DNA of 64,000 nt from positions 2,729-66,728 of the forward strand of contig JBKGZM010000001.1 of the NCBI GenBank assembly GCA_046545575.1, in the 5' to 3' direction. Positions 17,209 to 48,523 of this stretch are shown here, one piece after another (the first letter of the stretch is position 1; the number at the start of each line of letters is the position of its first letter). A program made the translations under genes and the position numbers. This DNA is from Dehalococcoidia bacterium. GTDB taxonomy: Bacteria; Chloroflexota; Dehalococcoidia; SZUA-161; SpSt-899. The notes beneath the pieces are model-generated. The model was not told where the DNA came from, did not search any database, and saw only the letters and a list, made by a program, of their open reading frames with translations.

Positions 17209-17290
17209 CATTTGGAGAGTGCTTATAAAACAGAGTGCTTTTACACCCGGAGAGGTTCCGCCTGTCCGGGAGAGGTGGGAGTTGTTAACC

Positions 17291-17324
17291 AAACCGCGGT
17301 GCCGCATGGCACCGCGGTTTTTTC
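17291..17324 (+). terminator. Rho-independent terminator after the CBS gene
   Basis: AAACCGCGGTGCC-GCAT-GGCACCGCGGTTT forms a perfect 13-bp stem and is followed by TTTT. Confidence 0.8.
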
Positions 17325-17351
17325 GTGAAGCCCCAGCCCCATGACCTTTCG

Positions 17352-17381
17352 TTGACATACCTCCTCCGCTTGGCCTAAAAT
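17352..17381 (+). promoter_or_regulatory. Sigma-70-like promoter of alaS
   Basis: TTGACA, an 18-nt spacer and TAAAAT, lying 33 nt upstream of the alaS ATG (RBS GGAAGGAG). Confidence 0.5.
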
Positions 17382-17413
17382 CAAACGGAAGGAGTCAAGA
17401 AATCGGTGAGACT

Positions 17414-22305: not shown

Positions 22306-22875
22306 ATGACAGCAATTACAGAAACGCCACCAACTCGCGAGAAAACATTCTTGGAGGAAGTTGCGTCAAGACCCGGGGGAGAGGATATCAACTCCTGCAT
22401 CCAATGCGGAACATGCACGGCATCCTGCCCCAATGCCAAGATAATGGATTACACTCCTCGGGAAATGATTGCTTTAACACGCGCGGGAGAGCGCAAGAAG
22501 GTCCTGTCCAGCAACTCAATGTGGGTATGTGCCTCCTGCTACATGTGTACTGTGCGGTGCCCCCGAGACATCAAGCCGACAGACCTGATGCATGCTTTCG
22601 AGGCACTGGCCATCCAGCATGGGATGGCTACAAGGCGAGTAGGTACTCCTATTGCTTATCAAGCGTTTGTTGACTCAATTAAGAGTAATGGCCGGGTCCA
22701 TGAGTTCGGCATGATGTTCAAATACTACTTAAAGACCAATCCCTTCGCCGCCCTTAAAATGTCCGGCTTAGCGCTAAAATTACTAACTCACAGGCGAATG
22801 TCCCTTACAGCCGACAAGATAAAGGGCGTTGATCAAGTCAAGAAAATCGCTGAAAAGGCGAAAACTCTGGAATGA
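22306..22875 (+). CDS. hdrC: Heterodisulfide reductase subunit C-like (2x[4Fe-4S])
   Basis: CIQCGTCTASCPNA and CASCYMCTVRCPRDI in a 189-aa protein upstream of hdrB. Confidence 0.85.
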   Translation: MTAITETPPTREKTFLEEVASRPGGEDINSCIQCGTCTASCPNAKIMDYTPREMIALTRAGERKKVLSSNSMWVCASCYMCTVRCPRDIKPTDLMHAFEALAIQHGMATRRVGTPIAYQAFVDSIKSNGRVHEFGMMFKYYLKTNPFAALKMSGLALKLLTHRRMSLTADKIKGVDQVKKIAEKAKTLE

Positions 22876-22913
22876 CCCTTTACCCGCCAATAGTTACAGT
22901 TAGGAGGTAGCCG

Positions 22914-23786
22914 ATGAGATACTATTCATATTTTCCAGGTTGCTCGGCCAAGGGCACAGCGGTAGGATATGAAATCTCCATCCAGGCCATTAAGAGTTCG
23001 CTGGAGATGGATCTGGCTGAGCTGGACGATTGGAACTGCTGTGGGACTACGCCTTACGCTTCTACAGACGAGCTGGGGGCAATATGCATCGCCGCTCGCA
23101 ACCTGGCATTGGCGGAGAAAACTGGTCTCGATCTGGTGACCGCTTGCAGCGCGTGTTATGTCACACTTGCGAGAGCAAATTCCTTTATCAAGCTCTATCC
23201 TGACATCAAGGAAAAGGTAAATCAGGCCCTGTCAGAGGTCGGACTGGAGTATAAAGGGACCGTTAAGGTGCGGCACTTGCTGGAGGTCATAATCAACGAT
23301 ATCACCCTGGAATCCGTTTCTTCCAAGGTGATAAACCCACTCGATGGACTTAGGGTGGCTCCATACTATGGATGCCAATTGGTCCGCCCCGATCTGGGAT
23401 TTGATGACCCCGAGAATCCCCAAACACTGGATCGTTTGATCACGAGCCTGGGAGCAGAGGCCACACCTTTCCAAAATAAGAACCGGTGCTGCGGAAGCTC
23501 TCTAGTGATAGCGGAGCCAAAGGTAGCATTCAGACTCATTCGTGATGTGCTTGCCAGCGCACAAGAGGGCAACGCGCAATGCATAATTACCGCATGTCCA
23601 TTGTGTCAGACCAATCTGGATGCTTATCAAGGTATGGTAAACAGCGAGTTCAAAACCAAGTTCGATCTCCCTGTTTTATTCTTCACCCAGCTTATCGGCC
23701 TTGCTCTGGGTATCGACGCCAAGACATTGGGCATAGACACAGCAATAGTATCGCCCAAGAAGGTAATGGCAGCGATAACGAAATAA
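22914..23786 (+). CDS. hdrB: Heterodisulfide reductase subunit B-like (two CCG domains)
   Basis: NCCGTTPY...CSACY and RCCGSS...CPLCQ. Confidence 0.85.
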   Translation: MRYYSYFPGCSAKGTAVGYEISIQAIKSSLEMDLAELDDWNCCGTTPYASTDELGAICIAARNLALAEKTGLDLVTACSACYVTLARANSFIKLYPDIKEKVNQALSEVGLEYKGTVKVRHLLEVIINDITLESVSSKVINPLDGLRVAPYYGCQLVRPDLGFDDPENPQTLDRLITSLGAEATPFQNKNRCCGSSLVIAEPKVAFRLIRDVLASAQEGNAQCIITACPLCQTNLDAYQGMVNSEFKTKFDLPVLFFTQLIGLALGIDAKTLGIDTAIVSPKKVMAAITK

Positions 23787-23863
23787 CTGTGGCAACCGAG
23801 GTCGGTTAATCAACCTTAACTGACCTTTAATCAATGAAATCAATATACAAAAGGGGTGTGCAA

Positions 23864-26800
23864 ATGGAAGAGCCAAGAATCGGTGTTTACATTTGTCACT
23901 GTGGAAGTAACATCGCGGGAACGGTGAACTGTGAGGACGTATCCGCTTTCGCGCAGGATCTGCCTGGAGTGACCATAGCTCGCGACTACAAGTACATGTG
24001 TTCGGACCCCGGGCAGAACCTCATCAAAGAGGACATCAAAAACCTCAATGTCAACCGTGTTGTTGTAGCTTCCTGCTCGCCGCGGATGCACGAACCCACA
24101 TACCGACGCTGTATTCAGGAAGCAGGATTAAATCCATACCTGTTTGAGATGGCCAATATCAGGGAACATTGCTCCTGGGTTCACCCAAACGAACCTGAGA
24201 AAGCTACGGAAAAGGCTAAAGCGCTGGTTCGCGGCGCAGTACAGAAAGTCTACTATCACGAGCCACTGGAGACAAGGGAGGTTCCGGTAAATCCCAGTGT
24301 CTTGATTATGGGTGGAGGAATTGCAGGTATCCAGGCCGCTCTCGAAATCGCCAGTTCTGAAAACAAGGTATACTTGGTAGAACGTGAGCCTTCTATTGGC
24401 GGTCACATGGCTCAACTCGACAAGACCTTCCCTACCCTTGACTGTTCAGCCTGTATCCTCACCCCCAAGATGAGTCTTGTAGGAGCTCATCCAAATATCG
24501 AGCTCCTGACTTACAGTGAGGTAGAAGAGGTAGCAGGCTATGTTGGCAATTTCGAGGTTAAGGTAAGGGAAAAGGCTCGATTTGTCGATGAAGAAAAATG
24601 CACCGGATGCGGTGAATGTACCAGGGCATGTCCTGTAGAAATCCCTTCCAAGTTCGAGTTGGGAATGACCAACACAAAGGCCATAGCAACGTCCTTCGCC
24701 CAGGCCGTTCCCAATGTCGCTTCCATCTATAAACGTGAGGGAGGTGCCTGGCCCCCCTGTCGCTTTACATGCCCCGCCGGAGTAAATGCTCAGGGGTACA
24801 TCGCCCTCATCTCTCAGGGCAATTTCAAGGAAGCGGCCGAGGTCGTGAGAAAAACCATGCCGTTCCCAGGCATTCTGGGGAGGGTATGTACACATCCATG
24901 CGAATCGGAGTGTGAGCGAGCAAAGCTCGATGAACCAATGGCCATCAGGGCTCTTAAGCGTTCAGCTGCTGACTATGAGAGGAAAGTGGGCAGGGAAAAA
25001 GCAAGCCCTGTAGAGATAACCAAGAAAGGGAAGATCGCGGTCGTGGGTTCAGGCCCAGCCGGCCTCGCATGTGCCTATGACCTCATACGCGAAGGATACC
25101 CTGTGACGGTATTTGAGGCAATGCCCGAAGCCGGGGGAATGCTTCGGTACGGCATTCCCGAATATCGCTTGCCAAAGGACGTGCTGGACAGCGAGATCAG
25201 CTACATAGAGGAACTTGGAGTAGAGATCAAGACAAACAATCCGATCAACGATATCGGTCAGCTTTTCAACGAGGGGTATAAAGCCATATTCATGAGTAAC
25301 GGCGCCTGGACAAGCCAGAAGATGAGAATAGAAGGGGAGGATGCAAACGGGGTGCTCCATGCGCTGGACTTCCTGAAGCGCGTCAATTCCGGAGATCAAA
25401 CCCAAATAGGCAAAAAGGTAGCCGTTGTCGGCGGTGGCAATGCTGCCATCGATGCTGCCAGGGTAGCATGGCGATTAGGCGCTGAGGAGGTAAGCATCGT
25501 CTACCGGCGCTCACGGGAAGAGATGCCCGCGGAAAAGAGTGAAATCGAGGAAACTGAAAGGGAAGGTATCAACATACAGTTCCTGGCAGCACCAAACAAA
25601 GTTCTAAGTGAAGGCAATAAGGTCAGTGGCATAGAGTGCACGCGAATGGAACTAGGTGAGCCTGATGCCAGTGGCCGACGTCGGCCCGTGCCCGTAAAAG
25701 GGTCTGAGTTCACTCTGGATGTAGACAACGTCATCATTGCCATCGGACAGGGCGTCGACAAGGAAGCACTGCCTGAGGAGCTTGAATACACTCAATGGAA
25801 TACCCTCTCAGTTGATGAGATTACTTTGGAGACGAACATCGACGGCGTATTCGCCGGTGGTGACGTAGTTTCCGGCCCAGCCTCGGTAATCGACGCTGTT
25901 GCTGCAGGCAAGGAAGCCGCTACATCAATTGACCGCTACATCAGGGATGTGGACATGAAAGAGGGCAGACCAGAGGAGAGGAGAAAGGTGTCCGATGTGC
26001 CCAAAGAGGGTGTTGCCAGTGCTTCGAGAAGTTCCATGTCCACCATTGAAGTTGATAAGCGGGTCCGTTCCTTCGCTGAAGTCGAGCAGGGCTTTGATGA
26101 AAATACAGCAATAGAGGAAGCCAAGCGCTGCTTGAATTGTGCCGGGTGTGCGGATTGTCGAGAGTGCGAGAAGGTCTGTGAGGCCGGGGCCATCAATCAC
26201 AGCATGCAGGACGAGATCCTGAACCTGGAAGTAGGAAACATAATCGTAACCACTGGCTTCCAAGCCTTCGACCCAACACCGATTTACCAATACGGGTATC
26301 ATCGCCTGGATAATGTTGTTACCGGCCTGGAGTTCGAACGTCTGATAAGCGCATCAGGTCCAACCGAAGGGCATATAGCACTTAAGAATGGAGAAGAGCC
26401 GGATAGTGTGGCTATTATCCATTGTGTAGGAAGCCGGGATGCCAAATACCACGAGTACTGTTCGCGGGTCTGCTGCATGTATTCCATGAAGTATGCCCAT
26501 TTACTCAGGGAACACGTCCCGAACGCCAGGATATATGAATTCTACATTGACCTGAGATGCTTCGGCAAAGGCTATGAAGAATTCTACAACCGGATGCTGA
26601 AGGAGGATATCACCTTCATTCGCGGCCGGCCCGGCGAGATCACACAGGAGGACGGCAAACTGGTAGTCCATGCCGAAGATACGCTGGCTTCCATCATGCG
26701 TGATATACCGGTCGACATGGCAATCCTGAGCATAGGCCTGGAGCCACAGGAAGATGCCGATGAGGTCTCCAAACTACTCAAGATGAGCAGAAGCGCGGAT

Positions 26801-27205
26801 GGCTTCTTTATGGAGAGTCATCCCAAGCTAGAGCCAGTATCCACACCCACAAAGGGAGTATTCATCGCCGGCTGCTGCCAGGGGCCCAAGGATATCCCTG
26901 ACACGGTAGCTCAGGCTTCAGGGGCAGCGGCGGAGGCTCTGGCCATGATCAGCAGAGGAAAGGTTGAAGTGGAAGCAGCTACCTCCGTGGTGGACGAAGA
27001 CCTTTGCTCCGGCTGCAAAACATGTGTATCACTATGCCCCTATGGCGCGATTTCGTTCGATGAAGAGAAAAAGGTGGCTGTCATAAACGAGGTGCTGTGC
27101 GAAGGGTGTGGTCTATGTGCCGCTACCTGCCCTTCAGGCGCTATCAAGGCCAGGCACTTCACGACACAGGAGATCATGGCGCAGATCGAGGGCATTCTGG
27201 TTTGA
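23864..27205 (+). CDS. hdrL: HdrA-like flavoprotein with an inserted NfnB/GltD-like NAD(P)H:FAD module (HdrL-type)
   Basis: HdrA N-terminus (RIGVYICHCGSNIAG; IMGGGIAGIQAA). A GltD-like insert spans about 24750-25950 (PPCRFTCPAG; VVGSGPAGLACAYDL; VVGGGNAAIDAAR). It is followed by an HdrA C-terminus (HCVGSRD..YCSRVCCMY) and a terminal 2x[4Fe-4S] region (CSGCKTCVSLCP; CEGCGLCAATCP). ATG 23864 follows AAAGGGG. Confidence 0.8.
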   Translation: MEEPRIGVYICHCGSNIAGTVNCEDVSAFAQDLPGVTIARDYKYMCSDPGQNLIKEDIKNLNVNRVVVASCSPRMHEPTYRRCIQEAGLNPYLFEMANIREHCSWVHPNEPEKATEKAKALVRGAVQKVYYHEPLETREVPVNPSVLIMGGGIAGIQAALEIASSENKVYLVEREPSIGGHMAQLDKTFPTLDCSACILTPKMSLVGAHPNIELLTYSEVEEVAGYVGNFEVKVREKARFVDEEKCTGCGECTRACPVEIPSKFELGMTNTKAIATSFAQAVPNVASIYKREGGAWPPCRFTCPAGVNAQGYIALISQGNFKEAAEVVRKTMPFPGILGRVCTHPCESECERAKLDEPMAIRALKRSAADYERKVGREKASPVEITKKGKIAVVGSGPAGLACAYDLIREGYPVTVFEAMPEAGGMLRYGIPEYRLPKDVLDSEISYIEELGVEIKTNNPINDIGQLFNEGYKAIFMSNGAWTSQKMRIEGEDANGVLHALDFLKRVNSGDQTQIGKKVAVVGGGNAAIDAARVAWRLGAEEVSIVYRRSREEMPAEKSEIEETEREGINIQFLAAPNKVLSEGNKVSGIECTRMELGEPDASGRRRPVPVKGSEFTLDVDNVIIAIGQGVDKEALPEELEYTQWNTLSVDEITLETNIDGVFAGGDVVSGPASVIDAVAAGKEAATSIDRYIRDVDMKEGRPEERRKVSDVPKEGVASASRSSMSTIEVDKRVRSFAEVEQGFDENTAIEEAKRCLNCAGCADCRECEKVCEAGAINHSMQDEILNLEVGNIIVTTGFQAFDPTPIYQYGYHRLDNVVTGLEFERLISASGPTEGHIALKNGEEPDSVAIIHCVGSRDAKYHEYCSRVCCMYSMKYAHLLREHVPNARIYEFYIDLRCFGKGYEEFYNRMLKEDITFIRGRPGEITQEDGKLVVHAEDTLASIMRDIPVDMAILSIGLEPQEDADEVSKLLKMSRSADGFFMESHPKLEPVSTPTKGVFIAGCCQGPKDIPDTVAQASGAAAEALAMISRGKVEVEAATSVVDEDLCSGCKTCVSLCPYGAISFDEEKKVAVINEVLCEGCGLCAATCPSGAIKARHFTTQEIMAQIEGILV

Positions 27206-27223: not shown

Positions 27224-28312
27224 ATGGAACAGATTCAGTCTCCGCGGATGCAGCAAGAGCAGCGGCATGTTCTTCGCATAGAGCAAGCCAACCTCCTGCA
27301 GATGTCTGAGGAGGAATTTCAGAGCTTAGTTGCTCAAATAGAAAAGAGCTCTCTCTTTAAGAAGCTCTACAAATCAGAAAACATAATCCATTACCAGCGA
27401 TTCCCCAAGACTGATATCTCCGCTCGCTGCTACGAGCTCAAGGAAAACATCCTCGCTGACGAGGGCTCTCTCGATGTGGAGCCCCTTCTGCAGCAGAGAG
27501 GGGAAGTGGTGGAGCTTATACAAAAGATAGGGCTGGAGAAGTTCAAGGAGTTCTTCCTCTTTCCCGACCCCGAGATTACCGCAGAGCATATCGCACAGGA
27601 GTGTAATATAAGTCTCTCCCAGGTGCACAGGATAAACGAATTCATCACCGACTTTTCCGCCATGAGCGAGTTCTATCATCCTTCAGCGATCAGCCCGGAG
27701 GAGAGAGTCCATTACTCCAAGGTCGCTTCAATAGAACGAGCACATGACGGCTTTGTTATCGGCTATTACCCCCCATCACTTGCCAGGGGAAGATATTCGA
27801 TTAACTACGAAAAATTTGAGAAAATAATAAATGAGAGGTTAACTGAGGCAGAGGGTAAGGAAGCAAGGAAGCTGTTCAGGAAACTGGAGTTGATAAATGT
27901 GCGCAAAGATACGCTGACGCAGATATTGCAAAATGTGGTGGAGAAGCAGAAACTATATTTGGACACCGGGGATGCGATGTCTCTCCTTCCGTTAAGTCAG
28001 AAGGAAATGGCCAACCAAATAGGACTGGATTCAAGCACGGTCAGCCGTACTATTCACGGGAAAAGCGTGGAGACGCCATGGGGAGAGGAGAAACCGATTA
28101 AAGATTTCTTCGCACATCCCAAGGACTTCAAGAAAGAGGCGCTTAAGAGAGTCTTTGAATCCGAAAGACGACCTCTCAGCGACCAGGCGATCAAAGAGAA
28201 ACTGGAGGAGTCAGGTATATTACTTTCCCGGCGCTCGATAGTGAACTTGAGGCAGGAGCTGAGAATGCCTTCATCACGAAAACGGTTTAAGAAACAGGAA
28301 AGCACAAAATGA
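27224..28312 (+). CDS. rpoN: Compact sigma-54 (RpoN) family sigma factor homolog
   Basis: Gln/Leu-rich region I (MQQEQRHVLRIEQANLLQMSEEEF). HTH segment LPLSQKEMANQIGLDSSTVSRTIHGKSVETPWGEEKPIKDFF. RpoN-box-like C-terminus PLSDQAIKEKLEESGILLSRRSIVNLRQELRMPSSRKR, compared with the canonical ARRTVAKYR. About 362 aa. Confidence 0.75.
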   Translation: MEQIQSPRMQQEQRHVLRIEQANLLQMSEEEFQSLVAQIEKSSLFKKLYKSENIIHYQRFPKTDISARCYELKENILADEGSLDVEPLLQQRGEVVELIQKIGLEKFKEFFLFPDPEITAEHIAQECNISLSQVHRINEFITDFSAMSEFYHPSAISPEERVHYSKVASIERAHDGFVIGYYPPSLARGRYSINYEKFEKIINERLTEAEGKEARKLFRKLELINVRKDTLTQILQNVVEKQKLYLDTGDAMSLLPLSQKEMANQIGLDSSTVSRTIHGKSVETPWGEEKPIKDFFAHPKDFKKEALKRVFESERRPLSDQAIKEKLEESGILLSRRSIVNLRQELRMPSSRKRFKKQESTK

Positions 28313-30234
28313 GTGTTGTGTACACCATAAAGGATAAATGCAAGGAATGCTACGCATGTGTCCGTAGCTGCCCTGTAAAAGCTATTAGGGTTAGAGAGCG
28401 GAAAGCCGAGGTCTTGAGGGATCGGTGTGTGGCCTGCGGCACGTGTATTAATGTCTGCCACGCAGGCGCAAAGAAATACGAAAGCGATATCGGGCTTGCT
28501 TGGCAATTACTGCGTGAAAATGCACCTGTCATAGCCGTTTTGTCGACCTCGTTCCCAGCAGGCTTTCCTGAAGTCCGCCCGAGGCAGCTCGTCACTGCCC
28601 TTAAGAAACTCGGATTCAACGAGGTTATGGAGGCTGCTTTTGGCGCTGAACTGGTTGCGCGCGAATACCGCAGGCTCTTCGATGAGAACAAAAAGGCTCC
28701 AATGCTCTCTTCTACCTGCCCGGCGTTTGTATCCATGATAGAGAAATTCTATCCTCAATTGATAAACAACTTAGCGCCCACTGTCTCACCAATGATAGCC
28801 ATGGGCCGAGTTATCAAGTGGAAATACAATCCAAATGCTAAAGTTGTCTTTGTGGGCCCATGTATTTCTAAGAAACTCGAGAAGATAGATGAAAAACTCT
28901 CTGGCGTAATCGATGCCGTCCTTACCTTTCCCGAGTTAAAGGAGATGTTTGCAGCCAAAGAGATTGATCCTGCCTCTGAAGAGGAATCACAATTCTCCGG
29001 GCCAAAGTCCAACCTCGGGCATCTATTTCCCATCTCCGGAGGATTGCTAAAGGTGACCGGAATTCCCGGCGACATTTCCACTACTGACGTCGTCTGGGCC
29101 GAAGGAAGGAGACGAGCTCGATGGTGTGTTGATGATCTCGCCCAGAACCGGATCGCCACCCGATTCCTAGATGCCTACTTCTGTGAAGGATGTATCAACG
29201 GCCCAGCAATCGGTAATGAGTTACGTACAACGGAAAAAAGAAGGATCGTTACCGAACACTTTGTGAATGAGTCTAATCCTGCGCAGGCTGAGAAAGACAT
29301 CCAAGAGTACAGCGGAATCGATCTGAGTCGCAAGTTTACAAATAGATTCAGCTCTCTGGAGCAACCCCGTGAGGAAGATGTAGAGGAAGTCCTTAATCAG
29401 ATCGGTAAGGCATCTCCAGAAGATCAACTTGACTGTGGCGCCTGTGGCTATGCTACCTGTAGGGAGCTGGCCGTAGCAGTGTCTCAGGGGCTGGCCGAGG
29501 TAGAGATGTGCTGGCCATATCTGTTTCGCAAGCTCAAGGATGCTCAGGAACAACTTATTCAAGCGGAGAAATTAACATCACTGGGGCAAATGGCGGCGGC
29601 TATCGCCCATGAAATCAATAATCCACTGGCGGGAGTTCTGACCTACACCAAACTTCTGATGAAAAAGGCCGAAAACGATTCTCTGACCAAGGAGATGTCC
29701 AGGGAGTATCTCCCGAAGATGGAGTCAGAGGTGACCCGCAGCTCCCGAATAATTCGCAATCTGCTGGATTTTGCCAGACAAACGGAGCCGATGTTACGTG
29801 AAACAGACATAAATCAAACCATAGAAAAAGCTCTATCTCTCGTAGGACACCAGGCGCAGATACAGAATGTCGAGGTCAAAAAAGAGCTGAGCCCTGACTT
29901 GCCCAAAATCACAGCTGATTTCGACAAATTACAGCAGGTGTTTACCAACCTTATTCTGAACGGGGTTCAGGCGATGCCGGATGGTGGAACGCTCACGTTA
30001 CGGAGCCAGCCCACGGGCAATGGCCATGTCAGGATTGACATTCAGGACACCGGATATGGCATACCCAAAGAGAACTTTCGCAATCTGTTTACGCCTTTCT
30101 TCACCACCAAAGAAAAGGGGAAGGGGGTAGGCCTGGGACTGGCTGTAGTGCATGGCATTATAGAGCAGCATAAAGGAAAGATCAATGTCCAGAGCGAGGA
30201 AGGGAAGGGAACGAGGTTCAGTATCTATTTGTAA
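28309..30234 (+). CDS. Sensor histidine kinase with an N-terminal 2x[4Fe-4S] ferredoxin, an [FeFe]-hydrogenase H-domain-like module and an RnfB-type Fe-S motif
   Basis: CKECYACVRSCP and CVACGTCINVC. H-cluster-like motifs SSTCPAFV, VGPCISKKLE and FCEGCINGP. CGACGYATCRELA...C. HisKA H-box AAIAHEINNPL. HATPase N and G boxes (NLILNGVQAM; DTGYGI; GKGVGLGL). The start overlaps the rpoN-like stop as ATGA. Confidence 0.8.
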   Translation: MSVVYTIKDKCKECYACVRSCPVKAIRVRERKAEVLRDRCVACGTCINVCHAGAKKYESDIGLAWQLLRENAPVIAVLSTSFPAGFPEVRPRQLVTALKKLGFNEVMEAAFGAELVAREYRRLFDENKKAPMLSSTCPAFVSMIEKFYPQLINNLAPTVSPMIAMGRVIKWKYNPNAKVVFVGPCISKKLEKIDEKLSGVIDAVLTFPELKEMFAAKEIDPASEEESQFSGPKSNLGHLFPISGGLLKVTGIPGDISTTDVVWAEGRRRARWCVDDLAQNRIATRFLDAYFCEGCINGPAIGNELRTTEKRRIVTEHFVNESNPAQAEKDIQEYSGIDLSRKFTNRFSSLEQPREEDVEEVLNQIGKASPEDQLDCGACGYATCRELAVAVSQGLAEVEMCWPYLFRKLKDAQEQLIQAEKLTSLGQMAAAIAHEINNPLAGVLTYTKLLMKKAENDSLTKEMSREYLPKMESEVTRSSRIIRNLLDFARQTEPMLRETDINQTIEKALSLVGHQAQIQNVEVKKELSPDLPKITADFDKLQQVFTNLILNGVQAMPDGGTLTLRSQPTGNGHVRIDIQDTGYGIPKENFRNLFTPFFTTKEKGKGVGLGLAVVHGIIEQHKGKINVQSEEGKGTRFSIYL

Positions 30235-30273: not shown

Positions 30274-31674
30274 ATGCAGGATGCTGACACCACACGACAA
30301 TCCCCGGATATGAAAAGCCAGATCAAAATCCTCGCTGTCGATGATGAAGAGACAGTCCGCGAATCACTAAAGGACTGGCTCACCGACTCAGGGTATCAGG
30401 TGCTGGTCGCTGAAGACGGATACAAAGCACTCGACATTATTAAACGTGAGAAGATAGGCATACTCATAGCCGATTTAGTAATGCCGGGCATAGACGGCAT
30501 TGAACTCATGAGAAGAACCAAGGAAATCTCCCCTGACACGGGTGTAATCATCATAACTGCGTACGGAAGCGTACCCAGTGCTGTGTCCGCGATGCATGAA
30601 GGGGCCTATGACTATATCGAGAAGCCATTCTGCCCCGAACGGGTGGAGTCGCTCCTTGAGAAGTTGATGGAACACCAGAGATTGGTAGAGGAAAACCGAG
30701 TTCTCCGCGAACAATTAGAAGACCATTACCGTTTTGAGAACATCATCGCTAAGAGCCACAAAATGCACAAGATTTTCGATGTGGTCAAAACCGTGGCCAA
30801 GAGCAATGCCAGTGTCCTCATCACCGGCGAAAGCGGGACCGGCAAGGAGCTTATTGCACGGGCCATCCATAATCTAAGTCCCCGCCGGGACAAGCCTTTC
30901 GTGGATGTGAGTTGCGCTGCATTACCTGAGAGCCTCCTCGAGAGCGAGCTATTCGGGCATGAGAGAGGGGCTTTTACCAGCGCTGTAAATCAAAGAAAGG
31001 GAAGATTTGAACTCGCTCACCGCGGGACCCTTTTCCTCGATGAAATAGGAGAGATAAGCACCAACATGCAGGTACACCTGCTCAGAGTCCTGGAGGAACG
31101 GGAGTTCACTCGCGTCGGGGGCACTGAGCCCATAAAGACCGATGTACGCCTCATTTCAGCCAGCAACAAAAACCTGAAGGAGGCGATAAACGAGGGAGAA
31201 TTCAGGGGAGACCTCTACTATCGCCTGAACGTAGTCAGCATTGAACTCCCGCCCCTCAAGGAAAGAAGCGAAGATATCCCCCTGCTGGCTCAACATTTTC
31301 TGAACAAGTTCGCCCGGGAGAACCAGAAAGGTGAGATTAAGCTTTCTTCCGAGGCCATGGACTTCCTTATGAAGTACGACTGGCCCGGGAATGTAAGGGA
31401 GCTAGAGAACACTATTGAGAGGGCGGTCGTGCTCACACAGGATAGCACGATCAACGTAGATGATCTGGCAACACAAAACCTACCTTCTGCTCAGCAATCT
31501 TCAAGTGAAGGAAGCCTTGAAGATATGGAAAAGCAACACATTGTAAATGTCCTCAAGGAGACCAGCGGGAACCACACCGAAGCAGCGAAACGGCTCGGGA
31601 TCACCCGGATGACCCTTTACAAGAAAGTCAAGAAATACGGAGTGGATGTAAACAAATTAAGCAGTGCTGTATAA
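30274..31674 (+). CDS. Sigma-54-dependent response regulator (NtrC family: REC, AAA+ and Fis-type HTH)
   Basis: REC domain (ILAVDDEE..IADLVMPGIDG), Walker A GESGTGKE, GAFTGA-loop variant ERGAFTSA, an ESELFGHE box and a C-terminal HTH (NHTEAAKRLGITRMTLYKK). Confidence 0.9.
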   Translation: MQDADTTRQSPDMKSQIKILAVDDEETVRESLKDWLTDSGYQVLVAEDGYKALDIIKREKIGILIADLVMPGIDGIELMRRTKEISPDTGVIIITAYGSVPSAVSAMHEGAYDYIEKPFCPERVESLLEKLMEHQRLVEENRVLREQLEDHYRFENIIAKSHKMHKIFDVVKTVAKSNASVLITGESGTGKELIARAIHNLSPRRDKPFVDVSCAALPESLLESELFGHERGAFTSAVNQRKGRFELAHRGTLFLDEIGEISTNMQVHLLRVLEEREFTRVGGTEPIKTDVRLISASNKNLKEAINEGEFRGDLYYRLNVVSIELPPLKERSEDIPLLAQHFLNKFARENQKGEIKLSSEAMDFLMKYDWPGNVRELENTIERAVVLTQDSTINVDDLATQNLPSAQQSSSEGSLEDMEKQHIVNVLKETSGNHTEAAKRLGITRMTLYKKVKKYGVDVNKLSSAV

Positions 31675-31734: not shown

Positions 31735-31768
31735 GTATTAGACACGCAGAACACCCGTAGCAACCCAG

Positions 31769-31817
31769 GGGAGGAGGGCGGTCCGCCGACGGCGGACCGC
31801 CCTCCTCCCTTTTCTTT
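31769..31817 (+). terminator. Strong rho-independent terminator after the kinase/activator genes
   Basis: A 20-bp perfect stem (GGGAGGAGGGCGGTCCGCCG-A-CGGCGGACCGCCCTCCTCCC) followed by TTTTCTTT. Confidence 0.8.
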
Positions 31818-31820
31818 AAT

Positions 31821-31837
31821 TGGCAACAAAATTGCAT
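31821..31837 (+). promoter_or_regulatory. Sigma-54 (-24/-12) promoter
   Basis: TGGCAACAAAATTGCAT matches the consensus TGGCACG-N4-TTGCW with exact GG-to-GC spacing. It lies 26 nt upstream of ATG 31863 and an RBS GGAGGTG follows it. Confidence 0.65.
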
Positions 31838-31862
31838 ATACATTAGGGTGGAGGTGATAGAG

Positions 31863-32936
31863 ATGATGAAGGGAGAAGAGAACAAAAGAAATGAAATCCA
31901 ACCTAAGGAGGTGGACAATATGAAACGGCAACCTGTACTGATAGTTGAGGATGAAAACATCATGCGAGAGTCCCTCAGGGACTGGCTGGCAGACAGCGGT
32001 TACGAGGTAACCACAGCCGAAGATGGTGAACAAGCGCTGCAAATGCTCGGAGAGCAAGAATTCGGCGTGGCGGTTCTTGACCTCAAACTACCGGGTAAGG
32101 ACGGCGTTGAGGTCCTGAAAGAAGCCACAAACCGGCAACCGAACCTGAAGGGCATCATTATCACCGCCTATCCGTCTGTGGAGACGGCGGTAGAGGCGAT
32201 GAAGTACGGCGCAACCGACTACCTGGTCAAGCCGGTCTCCCCGGATGAACTCGAGGACCTGATACAAAAGACCCTGGGTCCCGTACAGGCCGAGATCAGG
32301 CCACAGCCCGCTGCCGAGGAAGCTGTAGAGACCGAAACAGAAGCGGCCGAAGTCGAGCAACCGGCAGTTGAAGAGGAAGTCCCCAGCATAAGCGAAGCCG
32401 AAGCCCCTGCACACATGCAGGAGGGGAAGAACCTCTTGAAGGCTGGGCGCTTCGATCAAGCGAAAAGGGAATTCCAGGCCGTGATAAGCGTACAGCCTGG
32501 CAACCTGGAAGCACGGCAGTACCTCCGCCAAGCGAAGGAAGAGGTAGCAAAATCAGCAAAAGCTGCTGAAGCCCGTCCAGAAGTGGGCAAGCCATGCGTG
32601 TGGATGAAGCTGGGACTCGTCTCCTACCGCATGTGCAATCGGGACTACGATTGCTTCGCCTGCGAGTTCGACCAGATGATGCAGGAGAGATTAGCAACCG
32701 AGGAAGCGGAAGTAGACAAGGCAGTGGAGCGACTCAAGGAATTGCCAGGCAACCAGCGGGTTTGCCGCTACGCCCTTAAGGGAGAGGTCGCTCACCGGAC
32801 ATGTAGCCACCTTTTCAACTGTGCACAGTGTGAGTTCAATCAAATGATGGAAGATGCATTCCTGCAAAAGCTGACTGCGGAGCAGGAAGCGCTGCGCAAG
32901 AAGAAAGACAGTTGGTGGTGGAGTTACTGGAGTTAA
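31863..32936 (+). CDS. Response-regulator receiver protein with an acidic linker, a TPR-like segment and a duplicated C-x12-C-x5-C-x2-C module
   Basis: REC domain (VLIVEDEN..VLDLKLPGKDG..ITAY). Two copies of C..x12..C.x5.C.x2.CEF[DN]QMM. A Trp-rich tail SWWWSYWS. ATG 31863 lies 6 nt after GGAGGTG, whereas the track start is a GTG at 31848. Confidence 0.75.
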   Translation: MMKGEENKRNEIQPKEVDNMKRQPVLIVEDENIMRESLRDWLADSGYEVTTAEDGEQALQMLGEQEFGVAVLDLKLPGKDGVEVLKEATNRQPNLKGIIITAYPSVETAVEAMKYGATDYLVKPVSPDELEDLIQKTLGPVQAEIRPQPAAEEAVETETEAAEVEQPAVEEEVPSISEAEAPAHMQEGKNLLKAGRFDQAKREFQAVISVQPGNLEARQYLRQAKEEVAKSAKAAEARPEVGKPCVWMKLGLVSYRMCNRDYDCFACEFDQMMQERLATEEAEVDKAVERLKELPGNQRVCRYALKGEVAHRTCSHLFNCAQCEFNQMMEDAFLQKLTAEQEALRKKKDSWWWSYWS

Positions 32937-32952: not shown

Positions 32953-32986
32953 TATAGCCCGCCCGGGTATACCCGGGCGGGCTATA
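32953..32986. repeat. Perfect 34-nt palindrome
   Basis: TATAGCCCGCCCGGGTATACCCGGGCGGGCTATA, immediately followed by TGTATAAT (a -10-like sequence). Confidence 0.9.
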
Positions 32987-33062: not shown

Positions 33063-33530
33063 ATGGCTTATGAGGCGGTTGAAACGAGTACAGTAGAGGG
33101 GATCATAAATAGATACTCAGGAGACAGTTCAGCCCTTATTCAAGTCCTTCTGGACATCCAGCGTGAAAATCGGTGGTTGCCAAAAGACACCCTGAAACTG
33201 GTCAGTCAAAGTCTCGGTGTTCCATTAACTCAAGTCTACCATATAGCTAGCTTCTACAAGGCCTTCAGTCTTATACCCAAAGGGCGAAATCAGGTTACGG
33301 TTTGCCTGGGTACTGCGTGCCATACCAGGGGTGCGCCTCGTCTTCTGGACAGGGTTTCCACAAGCCTGAAGCTGAACCCGGGCGAGACCTCGGAAGACAT
33401 GCGCTTTAGCCTGGACACGGTCAACTGCCTCGGCTGCTGTGCTCTGGGACCAGTGATGATGGTCGGGGAGCAGTACTACAGCAACCCTTCCACGGAAGAG
33501 TTGGAGAATATCTTCTCCGCATGCGAATGA
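33063..33530 (+). CDS. nuoE: NuoE/HoxE-like [2Fe-2S] thioredoxin-fold subunit
   Basis: VCLGTACHTRGA ... VNCLGCCALGP in a 155-aa protein with RBS AAGGAGG. Confidence 0.85.
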   Translation: MAYEAVETSTVEGIINRYSGDSSALIQVLLDIQRENRWLPKDTLKLVSQSLGVPLTQVYHIASFYKAFSLIPKGRNQVTVCLGTACHTRGAPRLLDRVSTSLKLNPGETSEDMRFSLDTVNCLGCCALGPVMMVGEQYYSNPSTEELENIFSACE

Positions 33531-33560
33531 TCCCGCAATCAATATATTAAGGAGGGAGCT

Positions 33561-35489
33561 ATGCCAAAATTGAACTCAGCCTCTGACCTGGAGAATTTGA
33601 GACAAGAAGTGGTAAGCAAAAGAGACCCAAACAAGCTCTGTGTTACCATATGCTCGGGCACAGGATGCCGCGCATATGGTAGCGAACAGGTCGCTGAAAC
33701 CTTTGCCGAAGAGCTCTCAAAAAACGGGCTTAAAGATAAGGTCGACATACGTCGGACGGGGTGCCACGGGTTCTGCGAGAGAGGCACCCTCGTCGTCATT
33801 TTCCCAGAGGAAATATGTTACCTGAAGGTCAAACCAGATGATGTTCCCGAAATCGTCTCCACCACCTTACAGGAAGGGAAGGTAGTGGATCGGTTACTGT
33901 ACGAAAAAAGCGACGGCGAAAAAGTAGTTCACGAAAGCGAGATTCCCTTTTATAGCAACCAGAATAGAACAGTGTTCGGGAACAATAGATTTATTGACCC
34001 CAAGAAAATAGACGATTATCTGGCCCTGGGCGGCTACAAGGCCATTTCCAAGGCGCTTTTCGACCTCTCCCCCGAGCAAGTAATGGACGAAGTTAAGGCC
34101 GCCAACCTGAGGGGAAGAGGAGGCGGGGGATTCCCCGCAGGAATAAAGTGGGAGACCACTCGTGATGCTCCGGATGAACCAAAGTATGTCATCGTCAACG
34201 CCGATGAGGGCGACCCGGGCGCTTACATGGACAGGAGCTTGCTCGAGGGCAACCCCCACAGCGTGCTGGAGGGCTTGACTATCGGGGCCTACGCCATTGG
34301 CTCACACCAGGGCTTTATTTATGTGCGTCAGGAATATCCCCTAGCTGTGGAGAATCTGAACATCGCAATAGAGCAGGCACGGGAACACGGACTTCTCGGG
34401 GAAAATATCCTCGGCTCGGGTTTCAATTTCGATGTCACGGTACATCGTGGTGCTGGGGCTTTTGTTTCGGGAGAGTCCAGCGCTCTCATGACCGCAATAG
34501 AGGGCAAGGTAGGCGAACCCAGGCCAAAATACATTCGCACCGCCACAAGCGGCATCTGGGACAAACCCAGCGACCTGAACAACGTTGAGACCTGGGCCAC
34601 TGTTCCCTTGATAATCAACAAAGGCGCTGACTGGTTTACTGGTATCGGGACCGACAGAAGCAAAGGAACAAAAATATTCTCACTCGTGGGCAAAGTAAAT
34701 AATACAGGGCTTGTAGAGGTGCCCATGGGGACCACCATTCGTGAGATAATCTACAATATCGGCGGAGGCATTCCTGGAGGGAAGAAATTTAAGGCCGTTC
34801 AGACCGGTGGTCCCTCTGGAGGGGTTATTCCCGAAAGCCTCATCGACCTCCCCGTCGACTACGATGAGCTGGCCAGGGCGGGCTCGATGATGGGCTCTGG
34901 CGGCATGATCGTGATGGACGAAGATACCTGCATGGTAGATATCGCCAGGTATTACCTCAACTTCCTGGCAGGAGAATCCTGTGGCAAGTGCGTCCCATGT
35001 CGGGAGGGAATCTACCAGATGCTCAAGATACTGAACAGGATCTGCGATGGGGAAGGGCAAGATGGAGACATCGAACTCCTGGAGGAAATCGGGGAGGTGG
35101 TCAGGGACTTCTCGCTCTGCGCACTTGGTGCCACAGCCCCTAACCCTGTGCTCAGCACAATCTCGTATTTCCGCGACGAGTACGAGGCCCACATAAAGGA
35201 GAAGCGTTGCCCAGCTGGCGTTTGCAAGTCGCTTATCAGCTACTACATCGATCCGGATAAGTGTCAGGCCTGTATGATCTGCCTCAGGAACTGTCCTGTT
35301 GGAGCCATAAGCGGCGATAAGAACGTGATCCATGTCATAGATCAAGATAAGTGTACCAAATGCGGAACCTGCTTTGAGGTTTGCCCCTCACGCTTTGGTG
35401 CCGTTAAAAAGATCTCTGGAGAGGAACTGCCAGAAGCAGTCCCGGCAGGAACGCCGGTAAAGCGAGAAAAAGGAGGCAAGAATGGCTGA
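33561..35489 (+). CDS. nuoF: NuoF/HoxF-like NAD(P)H-binding FMN/Fe-S subunit with an N-terminal [2Fe-2S] domain and a C-terminal 2x[4Fe-4S] region
   Basis: GRGGGGFPAGIKWE, ESCGKCVPCREG, and C-terminal CQACMICLRNCP and CTKCGTCFEVCP. Confidence 0.9.
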   Translation: MPKLNSASDLENLRQEVVSKRDPNKLCVTICSGTGCRAYGSEQVAETFAEELSKNGLKDKVDIRRTGCHGFCERGTLVVIFPEEICYLKVKPDDVPEIVSTTLQEGKVVDRLLYEKSDGEKVVHESEIPFYSNQNRTVFGNNRFIDPKKIDDYLALGGYKAISKALFDLSPEQVMDEVKAANLRGRGGGGFPAGIKWETTRDAPDEPKYVIVNADEGDPGAYMDRSLLEGNPHSVLEGLTIGAYAIGSHQGFIYVRQEYPLAVENLNIAIEQAREHGLLGENILGSGFNFDVTVHRGAGAFVSGESSALMTAIEGKVGEPRPKYIRTATSGIWDKPSDLNNVETWATVPLIINKGADWFTGIGTDRSKGTKIFSLVGKVNNTGLVEVPMGTTIREIIYNIGGGIPGGKKFKAVQTGGPSGGVIPESLIDLPVDYDELARAGSMMGSGGMIVMDEDTCMVDIARYYLNFLAGESCGKCVPCREGIYQMLKILNRICDGEGQDGDIELLEEIGEVVRDFSLCALGATAPNPVLSTISYFRDEYEAHIKEKRCPAGVCKSLISYYIDPDKCQACMICLRNCPVGAISGDKNVIHVIDQDKCTKCGTCFEVCPSRFGAVKKISGEELPEAVPAGTPVKREKGGKNG

Positions 35490-36117
35490 AGTTACCTTAA
35501 CCATAGATGGAAGAGAGGTCAAAGCAGAGGAAGGAACGACCATTCTGGAAGCGGCACAGAGCGCAGGTTTTGATATCCCCAATCTCTGTTACCACCCCAT
35601 GCTAGCCCCCTACGGCGCTTGCCGGCTGTGCATGGTGGAGATAGAGCGGGGCAAGCGAACACGGTTGGTGTCCTCCTGTGTATATCCTGTAGAGGACGGG
35701 CTCACCGTATATACAGAGTCTGACCGAGTGGTCAAGGGACGCAAGATGTTGCTGGAGTTCCTGTGGGCACGTGCACCCGGCTGTAAGGCGATAAGGGACT
35801 ACGGCACCAGATATGGCATAAGCGGTATGGAATCCATACGAGAATTCGGCGAAGCCTATGGGGCAGCTGCAAGCAAGACCAAGTTCGAGATAGAGCCAAC
35901 CTTCTGCGTTCTTTGCGGCCTGTGCGTTCGGTATTGTGCAGAGATCAAGAAGAAGAACGCCATCGGATTCATTGGCAGGGGCACGGAACGGGAGGTAATG
36001 TTCTTCCCTGAGATAGCGCGCGAGGAATGCCCACAATGCGAGGAGTGCTTCTCCGTGTGCCCAACAGGTCTGGTCCGGCTCATGTTTGACCTAGTGAAAG
36101 AGCCGCAGTCCCCGTAA
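35482..36117 (+). CDS. hoxU: NuoG N-terminal / HoxU-like [2Fe-2S]+[4Fe-4S] subunit
   Basis: VTLTIDGREVKAEEGTTILEAA..CYHPMLAPYGACRLCMVEI, followed by CVLCGLCVRYC and CPQCEECFSVCP. Confidence 0.8.
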   Translation: MAEVTLTIDGREVKAEEGTTILEAAQSAGFDIPNLCYHPMLAPYGACRLCMVEIERGKRTRLVSSCVYPVEDGLTVYTESDRVVKGRKMLLEFLWARAPGCKAIRDYGTRYGISGMESIREFGEAYGAAASKTKFEIEPTFCVLCGLCVRYCAEIKKKNAIGFIGRGTEREVMFFPEIAREECPQCEECFSVCPTGLVRLMFDLVKEPQSP

Positions 36118-36823: not shown

Positions 36824-37237
36824 ATGGACCAGTTTGAACCGAAGATATTGGGATTTTGCTGTAACTGGTGCTCTTATGCTGGCGCCGACCTCGCTGGCAC
36901 TTCCCGAATGCAGCAAGCGACCAATGTGCGGATAATCAGGGTCATGTGTAGTGGCAGAGTTGACCCGACATTCATACTCAAAGCCTTTGAAGCAGGGGCT
37001 GACGGCGTGCTCATCGCCGGTTGCCATCCCGGAGATTGCCACTACATCGCAGGCAACTACAAAACTGCCCGGCGAATCTCTCTCCTCCAGAATATGTTAG
37101 AGCAACTCGGAATAGAGAAGGAGCGAGTCCGTATGGAGTGGGTTTCCGCCGCCGAGGGAGCGAAATTCACACAGGTAGTCAACGATTTTACAAAAACCCT
37201 CAAAGAATTGGGCGCAAGCCCAGTTAAAGCCCAATAA
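36824..37237 (+). CDS. mvhD: Methyl-viologen-reducing hydrogenase delta subunit (MvhD/FlpD family)
   Basis: ILGFCCNWCSYAGADLAG...VMCSGRVDPTFILKAFEAGADGVLIAGCHPGDCHY. Confidence 0.9.
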   Translation: MDQFEPKILGFCCNWCSYAGADLAGTSRMQQATNVRIIRVMCSGRVDPTFILKAFEAGADGVLIAGCHPGDCHYIAGNYKTARRISLLQNMLEQLGIEKERVRMEWVSAAEGAKFTQVVNDFTKTLKELGASPVKAQ

Positions 37238-37258
37238 ATTAAAAGGAAAGGAGCGAAC

Positions 37259-38236: not shown

Positions 38237-38268
38237 TAACTCGGAACTGACAGCACAAGGAGGAGATA

Positions 38269-41796: not shown

Positions 41797-41841
41797 GTAT
41801 TTAGCCTCGCTTGTAAATAGCGGCACAAAGGGGTTAAGATA

Positions 41842-42060: not shown

Positions 42061-42063
42061 AAA

Positions 42064-47073: not shown

Positions 47074-47074
47074 T

Positions 47075-48495: not shown

Positions 48496-48523
48496 TACTA
48501 TGGTGCCCTAATTGAGGAAGACC

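Follow-up and report, generated by a model that had tools for sequence, protein, structure and literature searches.

A Dehalococcoidia variant of the putative sensory [FeFe]-hydrogenase-like histidine kinases with an altered [2Fe] pocket and a sigma54 cassette

A stretch of 64,000 nucleotides of DNA from a Dehalococcoidia bacterium (GenBank assembly GCA_046545575.1, contig JBKGZM010000001.1, positions 2,729 to 66,728 of the forward strand), referred to here as the window, carries an open reading frame (ORF) for a sensor histidine kinase, the kinase ORF. Its product is a cytoplasmic histidine kinase in which a complete sensory-type [FeFe]-hydrogenase input module is fused to a core of dimerization and histidine phosphotransfer (DHp) and catalytic ATP-binding (CA) domains, without a PAS domain. 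Kinase-fused H-domains form a class that is already known and widespread. What is new is a Dehalococcoidia-specific variant of this class with an altered [2Fe] pocket, lost linkage to [FeFe]-hydrogenase genes, a sigma54 cassette with its promoter, and electron-transfer subunits tagged with receiver domains. We put the chances at about even that the kinases of this sub-clade are H2-independent Fe-S redox sensors in which the [2Fe] subsite of the H-cluster would be lost or profoundly altered. Loss of [2Fe] is slightly favoured because two otherwise invariant pocket positions are replaced, three further lining positions are relaxed, maturase genes and hydA are absent from about 330 kb and linkage to hydrogenases is weak.

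Domain architecture and predicted fold

A first-pass annotation of the window, made from the sequence alone, had proposed two [4Fe-4S] motifs, an H-domain, an RnfB-type cysteine motif, HisKA and HATPase domains and no PAS domain. This reading was borne out by Pfam, with all domains scoring over the curated cut-offs. The hidden Markov model Fe_hyd_lg_C (PF02906), a search suggested in that annotation, matched over the full length of the profile (E=4.4e-53, 180.9 bits, cut-off 22.1), and alignment of the kinase family profile to CpI with hhalign gave a probability of 99.4. No PAS family was detected in a Pfam scan of the kinase ORF down to E<=0.1, and the kinase core directly follows the C-terminal cluster. 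The kinase half matches ZraS (9jfj) with E=7e-44, and its boxes read NLILNGVQAM, DTGYGI, FTPFFTTK and GVGLGLAV. A membrane sensor was also considered and ruled out, as the highest 19-residue hydropathy is 1.07 and there is no membrane helix. An identical protein is encoded in a Dehalococcoidia metagenome-assembled genome (MAG).

Of the 17 cysteines of the protein, 16 sit in cluster motifs. All 16 are invariant in 46 family members, as are K188, E191 and the phospho-acceptor H434; the catalytic boxes of the kinase are likewise invariant across the family members compared.

The structure prediction that had also been suggested was made with AlphaFold2 on the basis of 46 homologs and gave a model with a mean pLDDT of 79. 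Foldseek matched the N-terminal two-thirds of this model to solved [FeFe]-hydrogenases (about 410-460 columns; E=1e-19 to 1e-17; TM-score up to 0.67, normalised to the target). The structures matched were HydA of T. kivui, HydA of T. maritima (TmHydA), CpI, DdH and HDCR HydA2. The C-terminal third superposes on ZraS. Between the two parts a long signalling helix (residues 402-455) leads from the final cysteine of the cluster motifs to the DHp domain, so that the C-terminal cluster motif stands directly ahead of it.

Comparison of the H-domain with CpI

Before the family profile was aligned to CpI, the CpI reference sequence was checked and found to be identical to 1C4A/3C8Y. The H-cluster ligands C300, C355, C499 and C503 of CpI correspond to C137, C185, C292 and C295 of the kinase ORF. 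An alignment without positional conservation of these cysteines had been named as a possible refutation of the H-domain assignment; instead, all four are invariant in sets of 46, 128 and 160 sequences. K358 and E361 of CpI correspond to K188 and E191, S323-P324 to S160-P161 and F417 to F240. The three H-cluster blocks recognised in the first-pass annotation stand in the order given there and map onto CpI as proposed. One feature does not show in the alignment given there: block 3 is Cx2C, one residue shorter than the Cx3C of catalytic enzymes, and Cx2C is the rule for the entire kinase-fused clade.

The proton-relay position C299 is T136 in the kinase ORF, in agreement with the earlier reading of this substitution as typical of sensory enzymes; only 17% of the sequences of sensory [FeFe]-hydrogenases carry Cys there (PMC10055695). 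In addition, E279 is deleted, S319 is replaced by A156 and R286 by L123. Together with C299T, these changes mean that the proton-transfer pathway is absent. M353 is replaced by G183, and Gly is found here in about 51% of sensory sequences (PMC10055695); M497 is replaced by Y290. Sensory groups are marked by a proton-relay Cys and proton pathway that are not conserved (PMC8163306, PMC10055695), and groups C and D carry a C-terminal Cx2Cx4Cx16C motif (PMC8163306), the exact spacing of which is found in the kinase ORF. The kinase ORF thus combines the features of the sensory groups: C299 and the proton pathway are lost, the residue at M353 is small, and a 2x[4Fe-4S] domain is present together with the C-terminal cluster. 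Of the residues that hold [2Fe], K188 is kept, whereas A230 is changed to Ser and P231 to Thr. The kinase ORF is a member of the putative sensory (group C-like) [FeFe]-hydrogenase lineage that has a histidine kinase as fusion partner.

A widespread class of kinase fusions

HydDB lists an [FeFe] group C1 as 'histidine kinase-linked (putative)' (PMC5037454). A 2024 study of Hydrogenedentota reported proteins of group C, given the name BfuT, that carry HATPase or histidine-kinase domains and are encoded next to operons for bifurcating hydrogenases; there, proteins with kinase domains were placed under C3 and HATPase-containing ones under C1 (PMC11406978). The physical kinase link of the C1/C3 type is present in the kinase ORF as a covalent fusion to HisKA and HATPase_c. 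Membership of a kinase-linked sensory class, as proposed in the first-pass annotation, was upheld. The class had been catalogued in both of these works, and the genomes of at least 578 GTDB species carry the module.

The size of the class was estimated in two ways. When residues 1-410 were compared with 1.84 billion representative proteins, 970 representatives were found at E<=1e-30. With each GTDB species represented by a single genome, a scan gave at least 578 confirmed relatives that carry the sensor module. The best 80 of these at least 578 come from Dehalococcoidia, Clostridia, KSB1, Hydrogenedentota, Ignavibacteria, Bacteroidota, Planctomycetota, Ca. Kuenenia, Myxococcota, Thermoleophilia, Verrucomicrobiota and Geobacteraceae. 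These 80 loci and three loci fetched earlier formed a set of 83, about 70 of which encode full-length kinase fusions with a Cx2C block 3. A separate set of proteins of about 570 amino acids keeps Cx3C; these are probably HydS of the PAS type, a class assignment made with no TmHydS sequence aligned.

Since relatives were depicted, under the name BfuT, as part of BfuABC (PMC11406978), and since the gene adjoins NuoEF, the product could be thought of as a catalytically relevant hydrogenase 'T' subunit of a NuoEF/HydABC-type complex, with a kinase that is secondary or inactive. We find this hardly credible. The proton pathway is gone through the four changes named above (C299T, deletion of E279, S319A and R286L), the kinase boxes and H434 are invariant, and a cognate regulator is always adjacent in the sub-clade.

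Genomic context of the wider family

The kinase-fusion gene starts 0-140 bp 3′ of a gene for a CpI-like HydA (about 573 amino acids) in 54 of the 83 loci. NuoF- and NuoE-like genes precede HydA in these 54 loci, which makes the sensor gene number four in a hydC-hydB-hydA operon. Outside Dehalococcoidia, the nearest relatives (L008, L009 and L010; 46-50% identity) have another arrangement, in which hydG, hydE and hydF directly precede the sensor. These maturase genes were identified with NCBIfam equivalog models at 309-557 bits (L009, L008). Within 10 kb, L009 and L010 carry no catalytic hydA, and their neighbourhood is like that of the window, with HdrA, MvhD, the small and large [NiFe] subunits, an NtrC-type regulator, NuoE/F and a HoxU-like protein. 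The order hydG-hydE-hydF-sensor kinase beside MvhD-[NiFe]-HdrA and NuoEF was observed in L009:6174-12061, in L010 with the same layout and in L109, all from uncultured Clostridia-like MAGs.

Because hydGEF adjoin the sensor in L009 and L010 and a catalytic hydA is absent within 10 kb, the sensor appears to be the obvious local client of the maturases, and the [FeFe] maturases appear to be kept for the sensor among [NiFe] genes. As sensors of the parent family sit in hydC-hydB-hydA operons or directly after hydG-hydE-hydF, the signal of this family is, on gene context, almost certainly H2.

An altered pocket and lost linkage in the Dehalococcoidia sub-clade

For a comparison of pocket and context, loci from genome and metagenome scans were pooled. 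The resulting 160 loci were split by the residues at A230-P231 into 118 AP-type, 30 Dehalococcoidia-type and 12 Geobacteraceae-type loci. Linkage was counted only in loci with at least 5 kb of flank.

The pocket of the AP-type is close to invariant. Among 118 sequences, A230, P231, G353 and K358 are found in all 118, Met at Q325 in 116, Leu at M497 in 116 and S232 in 115. The sub-clade, which consists of the 30 Dehalococcoidia-type loci and the window, differs at five of these positions. A230 is Ser in 31 of 31, and P231 is replaced in 30 of 31 (Ser in 26, Ala in two, Gly and Thr in one each). The position of S232 is occupied by Ser in 21, Ala in five, Pro in three and Thr in two members, that of Q325 by Met in 21 and Thr in ten, and that of M497 by Tyr in 13, His in ten, Phe in four, Leu in two and Cys and Gly in one each. 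In the Geobacteraceae-type, degeneration has gone further: residues 230-232 read G-C-S, K358 is changed to Gly or Ala, G353-P354 to S-S, and Arg is found at M497. The sub-clade thus stands, in terms of its pocket residues, halfway between an H-cluster-competent AP-type and a clearly degenerate Geobacteraceae-type.

Gene linkage follows the same division. Whereas hydA and/or hydG/E/F are nearby in 81 of 96 AP-type loci, none of these genes was found near any of 18 Dehalococcoidia-type loci (270 kb of flank) or any of ten Geobacteraceae-type loci. The contrast between AP-type and Dehalococcoidia-type is significant by Fisher's test (p=2.6e-12), although the loci are phylogenetically non-independent. 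A CpI-like hydA was found neither in the window nor in any of the 30 sub-clade loci, compared with 77 of 118 in other clades. That hydE, hydF and hydG are missing from the 64-kb window, as already remarked in the first-pass annotation, was confirmed by a scan of every large ORF and by tblastn with confirmed HydG, HydE and HydF. Taking the 270 kb of flanks, the window and about 5 kb beyond it together, no maturase or hydA gene occurs in about 330 kb around the 31 sub-clade members. Among the 120 closest homologs of the sister-clade HydG, which reach down to about 53% identity, none is named as from Dehalococcoidia or Chloroflexota, which is weak evidence; the best unnamed matches belong to an archaeon (L085) and an unrelated lineage (L086). 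A literature search on hydE, hydG or Hym maturation in Dehalococcoidia gave nothing usable. In a neighbour-joining tree, rooted arbitrarily on the Geobacteraceae clade and without support values, the Dehalococcoidia clade is monophyletic with a long stem.

The earlier proposal of H2 sensing is therefore to be divided. It is well grounded for the AP-type, with its 81 of 96 linked loci, and it does not carry over in the same way to the sub-clade, with 0 of 18 linked loci and A230 and P231 replaced.

The sigma54 cassette and its promoter

All Dehalococcoidia-type loci with enough sequence share one gene order: sigma54-like protein, sensor kinase, NtrC-type regulator and an orphan receiver, usually with tetratricopeptide repeats (TPR). 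The stop codon of the sigma54-like gene overlaps the start of the kinase ORF (ATGA), and the regulator gene begins 40 bp past the kinase stop. A cognate response regulator always adjoins the sensor in the sub-clade, and the sigma54-like gene (352-372 amino acids) does so in 21 of 30 Dehalococcoidia-type loci. Within the sigma54-like protein, only the C-terminal DNA-binding domain and the RpoN box were recognised; a core-binding region was not detected by Pfam. The protein may be a dedicated sigma factor that travels with activator and promoter.

A predicted sigma54-type -24/-12 promoter is located directly past the terminator that closes the unit. Its GG and GC and most flanking bases are invariant in an alignment of four loci, while the surroundings are otherwise poorly conserved. 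This site is the sole perfect TGGCA-N6-TTGCA in the window. The element TTGGCAA-N5-TTGCA is common to 16 loci, that is, the window and 15 further Dehalococcoidia-type loci; it lies at most 100 bp 5′ of the orphan regulator gene in 13 of these further loci and directly 5′ of a gene for a fusion of a receiver domain (REC) to NuoE in L105 and L106. The background rate is 18 matches in 3.8 Mb of other loci. The element emerged from the cross-locus alignment; a search with the canonical consensus TGGCAC-N5-TTGCW (up to two mismatches) was uninformative, with 33 matches against 30 expected.

In L005 and L007, nuoE, nuoF and a REC-HoxU fusion come 7 bp past the orphan regulator gene. Together with the position of the promoter in relatives, this gene order indicates that the conserved transcriptional target is probably the orphan regulator with the NuoEF-HoxU module. 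In the window, a hairpin (32958-32985) stands between the orphan regulator gene and nuoE, and no -24/-12 site was found ahead of nuoE (33063) or mvhD (36824). The first-pass annotation had seen the kinase as wired to a sigma54 activator next to a [NiFe]-hydrogenase operon. The partnership with the NtrC-type activator was confirmed. The link to the [NiFe] operon was not: a [NiFe] large subunit is encoded near one of the 30 other Dehalococcoidia-type loci, that is, in two of 31 including the window, and the promoter would serve the gene for the orphan regulator and those for NuoEF. That the [NiFe] operon is directly controlled was rejected as a general statement, because the adjacency is not conserved and a -24/-12 site before nuoE or mvhD is lacking.

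Receiver domains are also found on the electron-transfer subunits themselves: REC-NuoE (304 amino acids) in L105:13433-14344 and L106:4783-5694, a REC-HoxU-like protein (333 amino acids) in L007:17013-18014 and a REC-NfnB/GltD-like protein (745 amino acids) in L003:6640-8877. In the window the receiver is a separate protein (31848-32936) instead. The fusions suggest that the flavin/Fe-S electron-transfer complex may be under phosphorylation-dependent control. We know of no earlier description of post-translational control through receivers on NuoE, HoxU and NfnB-like subunits.

In two further loci, L060:10001-12286 (Geomonas silvestris Red330) and L050:9974-12232, the same Fer4/H-domain/FeS module is fused to a sigma54-interaction AAA+ domain and HTH_8. 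Such one-component enhancer-binding proteins with the sensor module also occur in L026, L031, L033, L035, L036 and L040. The direct fusion to a sigma54-activator domain in Geomonas and a Bacillota MAG strengthens the link between the sensor module and sigma54.

Comparison with known systems

Putative sensory [FeFe]-hydrogenases have been studied by spectroscopy in two enzymes, TmHydS and TamHydS. TmHydS of Thermotoga maritima (group C / M2f) shares with the kinase ORF the N-terminal 2x[4Fe-4S] domain, the four H-cluster cysteines and the Cx2Cx4Cx16C motif (PMC8163306, PMC10055695). M353 is Gly in both, whereas the C299 position is Ala in TmHydS and Thr in the kinase ORF. TmHydS ends in a PAS domain and carries no kinase, whereas DHp/CA directly follow in the kinase ORF, so that the PAS domain after the C-terminal cluster, which defines group C / M2f, is missing there. 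Block 3 differs as well, if the Cx3C set of about 570 amino acids, taken as PAS-type HydS with no TmHydS sequence aligned, is representative.

TamHydS of Thermoanaerobacter mathranii (group D / M2e) resembles the kinase ORF in lacking PAS, in its cluster complement and in the missing proton pathway. Its gene adjoins a gene for a kinase-like ATPase (PMC8163306; PMC13104023). On the other hand, M353 is Ser or Thr in group D and Gly in the kinase ORF, and TamHydS stands alone, its gene lying upstream of those for a bifurcating group A hydrogenase, whereas the kinase ORF is a fusion.

The fusion architecture is shared with the BfuT/HydDB C3 kinase proteins (e.g. WP_006928132.1 of Caldithrix abyssi) and with C1, which have the same H-domain, Fe-S motif, histidine kinase fusion and Cx2C block 3. 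BfuT/C3-type proteins are 38-50% identical to the kinase ORF over the sensor. Their genes are located directly beside hydA/bfuA and often hydGEF; A230 and P231 are always kept, and S232 and Leu at M497 nearly always. The kinase ORF, in contrast, has neither hydA or hydGEF neighbours nor this set of pocket residues and sits in the sigma54 cassette. BfuT is further characterised by an adjacent catalytic group A3 HydA with NuoE/NuoF-like proteins, whereas the NuoE/NuoF-like genes of the window accompany a HoxU-like subunit and [NiFe] genes.

Two systems of other descent offer functional parallels. In HoxBC/HoxJ/HoxA of Cupriavidus necator ([NiFe] group 2b), a hydrogenase-like sensor that does not conserve energy signals through a histidine kinase to an NtrC-family activator, which governs hydrogenase-related genes through sigma54 promoters. 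The outline is alike, but the metal site and fold of HoxBC are unrelated, and sensor and kinase are separate proteins joined via PAS. The eukaryotic Nar1/NARFL of the cytosolic iron-sulfur assembly (CIA) pathway has an H-domain that keeps cluster cysteines, lacks the [2Fe] subsite and acts as an Fe-S protein. It is a precedent for a redox-only H-domain, although Nar1 carries no kinase and has its role in Fe-S protein assembly.

Signal and proposed mechanism

If the sub-clade kinase is a redox sensor, it would report the ferredoxin/NAD(H)-linked redox poise through [4Fe-4S] clusters only and control the electron-bifurcating NuoEF/Hdr/[NiFe] module; the odds of this seem to us evenly balanced. 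A more far-reaching version is tentative, and we hold it at somewhat below an even chance. According to it, the H-domain of the sub-clade shed [2Fe] and its dependence on HydEFG and was exapted as a [4Fe-4S]-only redox kinase, as a bacterial parallel to Nar1. The kinase would form a self-contained cassette that also includes a sigma54 paralogue, an activator of the NtrC type and a promoter of its own, and would control the NuoEF-HoxU/Hdr/[NiFe] module both transcriptionally and through receiver domains.

Several observations weigh against loss of [2Fe]. K358 is kept in 30 of 31 sub-clade members, and G353-P354, S323-P324, F417 and all four cysteines are kept as well. A retuned yet intact H-cluster fits the halfway degeneracy of the pocket equally well. 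The difference in linkage may go back to one ancestral rearrangement, as the sub-clade is a single clade, and hydEFG are often unlinked from their clients; the search for them covered the window, about 5 kb beyond it and the flanks of the loci. TmHydS binds [2Fe] experimentally, and both TmHydS and TamHydS do so despite non-canonical residues at C299, M353 and M497 (PMC10055695, PMC8163306). Finally, the [NiFe] hydrogenase, MvhD and NuoEF in the window still point to H2 metabolism.

These points bear on a second explanation, a genuine H2 sensor, to which we assign a chance that is considerable and falls short of even. Here, [2Fe] would be supplied by HydEFG encoded elsewhere and held in a retuned second sphere (A230S, P231S/T, Tyr, His or Phe at M497, and Thr or Asn at C299). 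Oxidation of H2 would reduce the Fe-S chain, switch the kinase and induce NuoEF/[NiFe]/Hdr via NtrC and sigma54. The conservation of the four cysteines, K358, E361, G353-P354, S323-P324 and F417 in 31 to 46 sub-clade members is consistent with this, as are the tight linkage of the parent family to hydA and hydGEF and the tolerance of characterised HydS enzymes for unusual pocket residues. L009, L010 and L109, with a hydGEF-sensor unit in an MvhD-[NiFe]-HdrA / NtrC / NuoEF neighbourhood like that of the window, are a precedent for an [FeFe]-type sensor beside [NiFe] genes. What speaks against an H2 sensor is that replacement or relaxed constraint affects five [2Fe]-lining positions, each of them fixed in 115-118 of 118 relatives, that the maturases and hydA are missing from about 330 kb around the 31 sub-clade members, that a hydrogenase is nearby in so few of these loci and that no Dehalococcoidia HydG was found among the 120 closest HydG homologs.

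A pocket emptied of [2Fe] might also expose a [4Fe-4S] cluster to destruction or ligation, so that the kinase would sense O2, NO or a small molecule by a logic like that of FNR or NsrR. The bacterium is a strict anaerobe and the protein has four Fe-S clusters, the pocket is perhaps vacant if [2Fe] is absent, and an Rrf2 regulator and suf genes are present in the window. However, none of the evidence is specific to O2 or NO, and the inferred regulon is an NADH/ferredoxin module rather than a stress response. We consider this explanation very improbable.

For the redox sensor, a route of signalling can be outlined from the observed domain anatomy, the conserved ligands and kinase boxes, and the conserved cassette and promoter. 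The Fe-S chain would take on its redox state at the H-domain and F-domain. Placed at the base of the helix to H434, the C-terminal cluster would read this state and switch autophosphorylation on or off, and the phosphate would then pass to the adjacent NtrC-type regulator and possibly also to receiver-bearing partners. The regulator, presumably with the co-encoded sigma54-like factor, would fire the TTGGCAA-N5-TTGCA promoter before the orphan regulator gene; the same promoter fronts the NuoE/NuoF/HoxU genes in relatives. A second arm may act post-translationally on the flavin/Fe-S complex, as the receivers on NuoE, HoxU and NfnB-like subunits of sister loci suggest.

Features and neighbouring genes

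The features of the cassette, the residue blocks of the H-domain and the adjoining gene groups are listed in Table 1.

Table 1. Features of the kinase ORF and its surroundings (positions in the window)
Feature	Position	Strand	Basis and remarks
HdrC-, HdrB- and fused HdrA-like genes (HdrA/NfnB-like flavoprotein of 1123 aa)	22306..27205	+	Pfam; directly upstream of sigma54-like gene
Short sigma54-like protein, 367 aa	27209..28312	+	Sigma54_DBD E=1e-25; aligns to Aquifex RpoN 5ui5 over residues 160-359
Sensor histidine kinase ORF, 641 aa	28309..30234	+	ORF list, Pfam; ATG start, predicted soluble
F-domain, two ferredoxin-type [4Fe-4S] motifs (C11, C14, C17, C21; C40, C43, C46, C50)	28321..28470	+	Fer4-type dicluster domains, residues 5-54
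H-domain, Fe_hyd_lg_C, residues 74-299	28528..29205	+	Pfam, hhalign, Foldseek
S79-T80-S81 = CpI A230-P231-S232	28543..28551	+	Profile alignment, 160-locus comparison; replaced in Dehalococcoidia sub-clade only
Block 1, S-S-T136-C137-P-A = CpI TSC299C300P	28708..28725	+	Alignment to CpI
Block 2, G183-P-C185-I-S-K188-K-L-E191 = CpI M353-P-C355..K358..E361	28855..28881	+	G, P, C, K, E invariant
Block 3, D-A-Y290-F-C292-E-G-C295-I-N-G-P = CpI E..M497.C499...C503	29170..29205	+	Alignments including 7qv7_D
C-terminal Cx2Cx4Cx16C [4Fe-4S] motif (C376, C379, C384, C401)	29434..29511	+	Pfam FeS PF04060, residues 373-402, E=2.5e-10
HisKA/DHp domain, residues 425-492, phospho-acceptor H434 in AHEINNPL	29581..29784	+	Pfam
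HATPase_c, residues 537-641	29917..30231	+	Pfam; N/G1/F/G2 boxes intact
NtrC-type response regulator (REC, sigma54-interaction AAA+ with GAFTSA loop, HTH_8)	30274..31674	+	Pfam; conserved partner
Intrinsic terminator hairpin, 20-bp stem	31767..31811	+	Closes sigma54-like/kinase/regulator unit
Sigma54-type -24/-12 promoter, TTGGCAACAAAATTGCA	31820..31836	+	Directly past terminator
Orphan response regulator with TPR (RR-TPR)	31848..32936	+	Pfam; likely true start ATG 31863
NuoE-like, NuoF-like, HoxU-like Fe-S/flavin module, three genes	33063..36117	+	Pfam
MvhD and [NiFe]-hydrogenase small and large subunits, group 3-like	36824..39735	+	Pfam

The gap between the fused HdrA-like gene and the sigma54-like ORF is 3 bp, and the Hdr genes possibly share a transcription unit with the latter. 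An HdrA-like gene is upstream in seven of 30 related loci; a comparable large flavoprotein stands ahead of the cassette in L002 and L006 as well as in several metagenome loci.

Downstream of the [NiFe] genes, positions 39979-44114 encode an NfnB/GltD-like flavoprotein (605 amino acids), a polyferredoxin-MvhD fusion (388 amino acids) and a MetV-like protein (DUF5981, 216 amino acids). This group brings to mind the methylene-tetrahydrofolate reductase complexes of the Hdr-MvhD-MetFV type in acetogens; a MetF gene was not seen in the window. SufBD-like genes (46357-48028) lie upstream of the [NiFe] maturation genes, which form a complete set: hycI, hypA, hypB-like and hypF at 48025-52180, with hypE, hypD and hypC just past the right edge (L084:9626-11952). 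They are followed at 52898-55682 by genes for a molybdopterin oxidoreductase (815 amino acids, formate-dehydrogenase-like, with an N-terminal Fe4S4), a small 4Fe-4S protein and then methionyl-tRNA formyltransferase. At about 16200-17400, coding switches from the minus to the plus strand at the minimum of the cumulative GC skew, which could mark a replication origin or terminus or the boundary of divergent operons. A DUF433 / PIN-like (DUF5615) pair, probably a toxin-antitoxin module, was observed at 60962-61330 and in L084:6222-6820. Outside the window, HydG lies beside a HypC-domain/radical-SAM fusion in a HydE-like position on an archaeal contig (L085:8700-11383, with TFIIB and deoxyhypusine synthase). 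[FeFe]-hydrogenases have recently been reported in archaea, and L085 is consistent with that.

Implications

Direct kinase fusions are the simplest read-out of signalling by sensory hydrogenases, as autophosphorylation can be compared with and without H2. The census locates clean candidates for H2 sensing in the AP-type fusions within hydCBA operons or immediately past hydGEF. A natural contrast to them is the Dehalococcoidia variant, in which the scaffold is the same, the [2Fe] pocket is altered, no maturase genes are linked and the sigma54 output is defined. This contrast makes the pocket residues needed for a sensory H-cluster testable by swaps at three or four positions. The variant also suggests how flavin-based electron-bifurcating complexes may be regulated in uncultured Dehalococcoidia of sediments.

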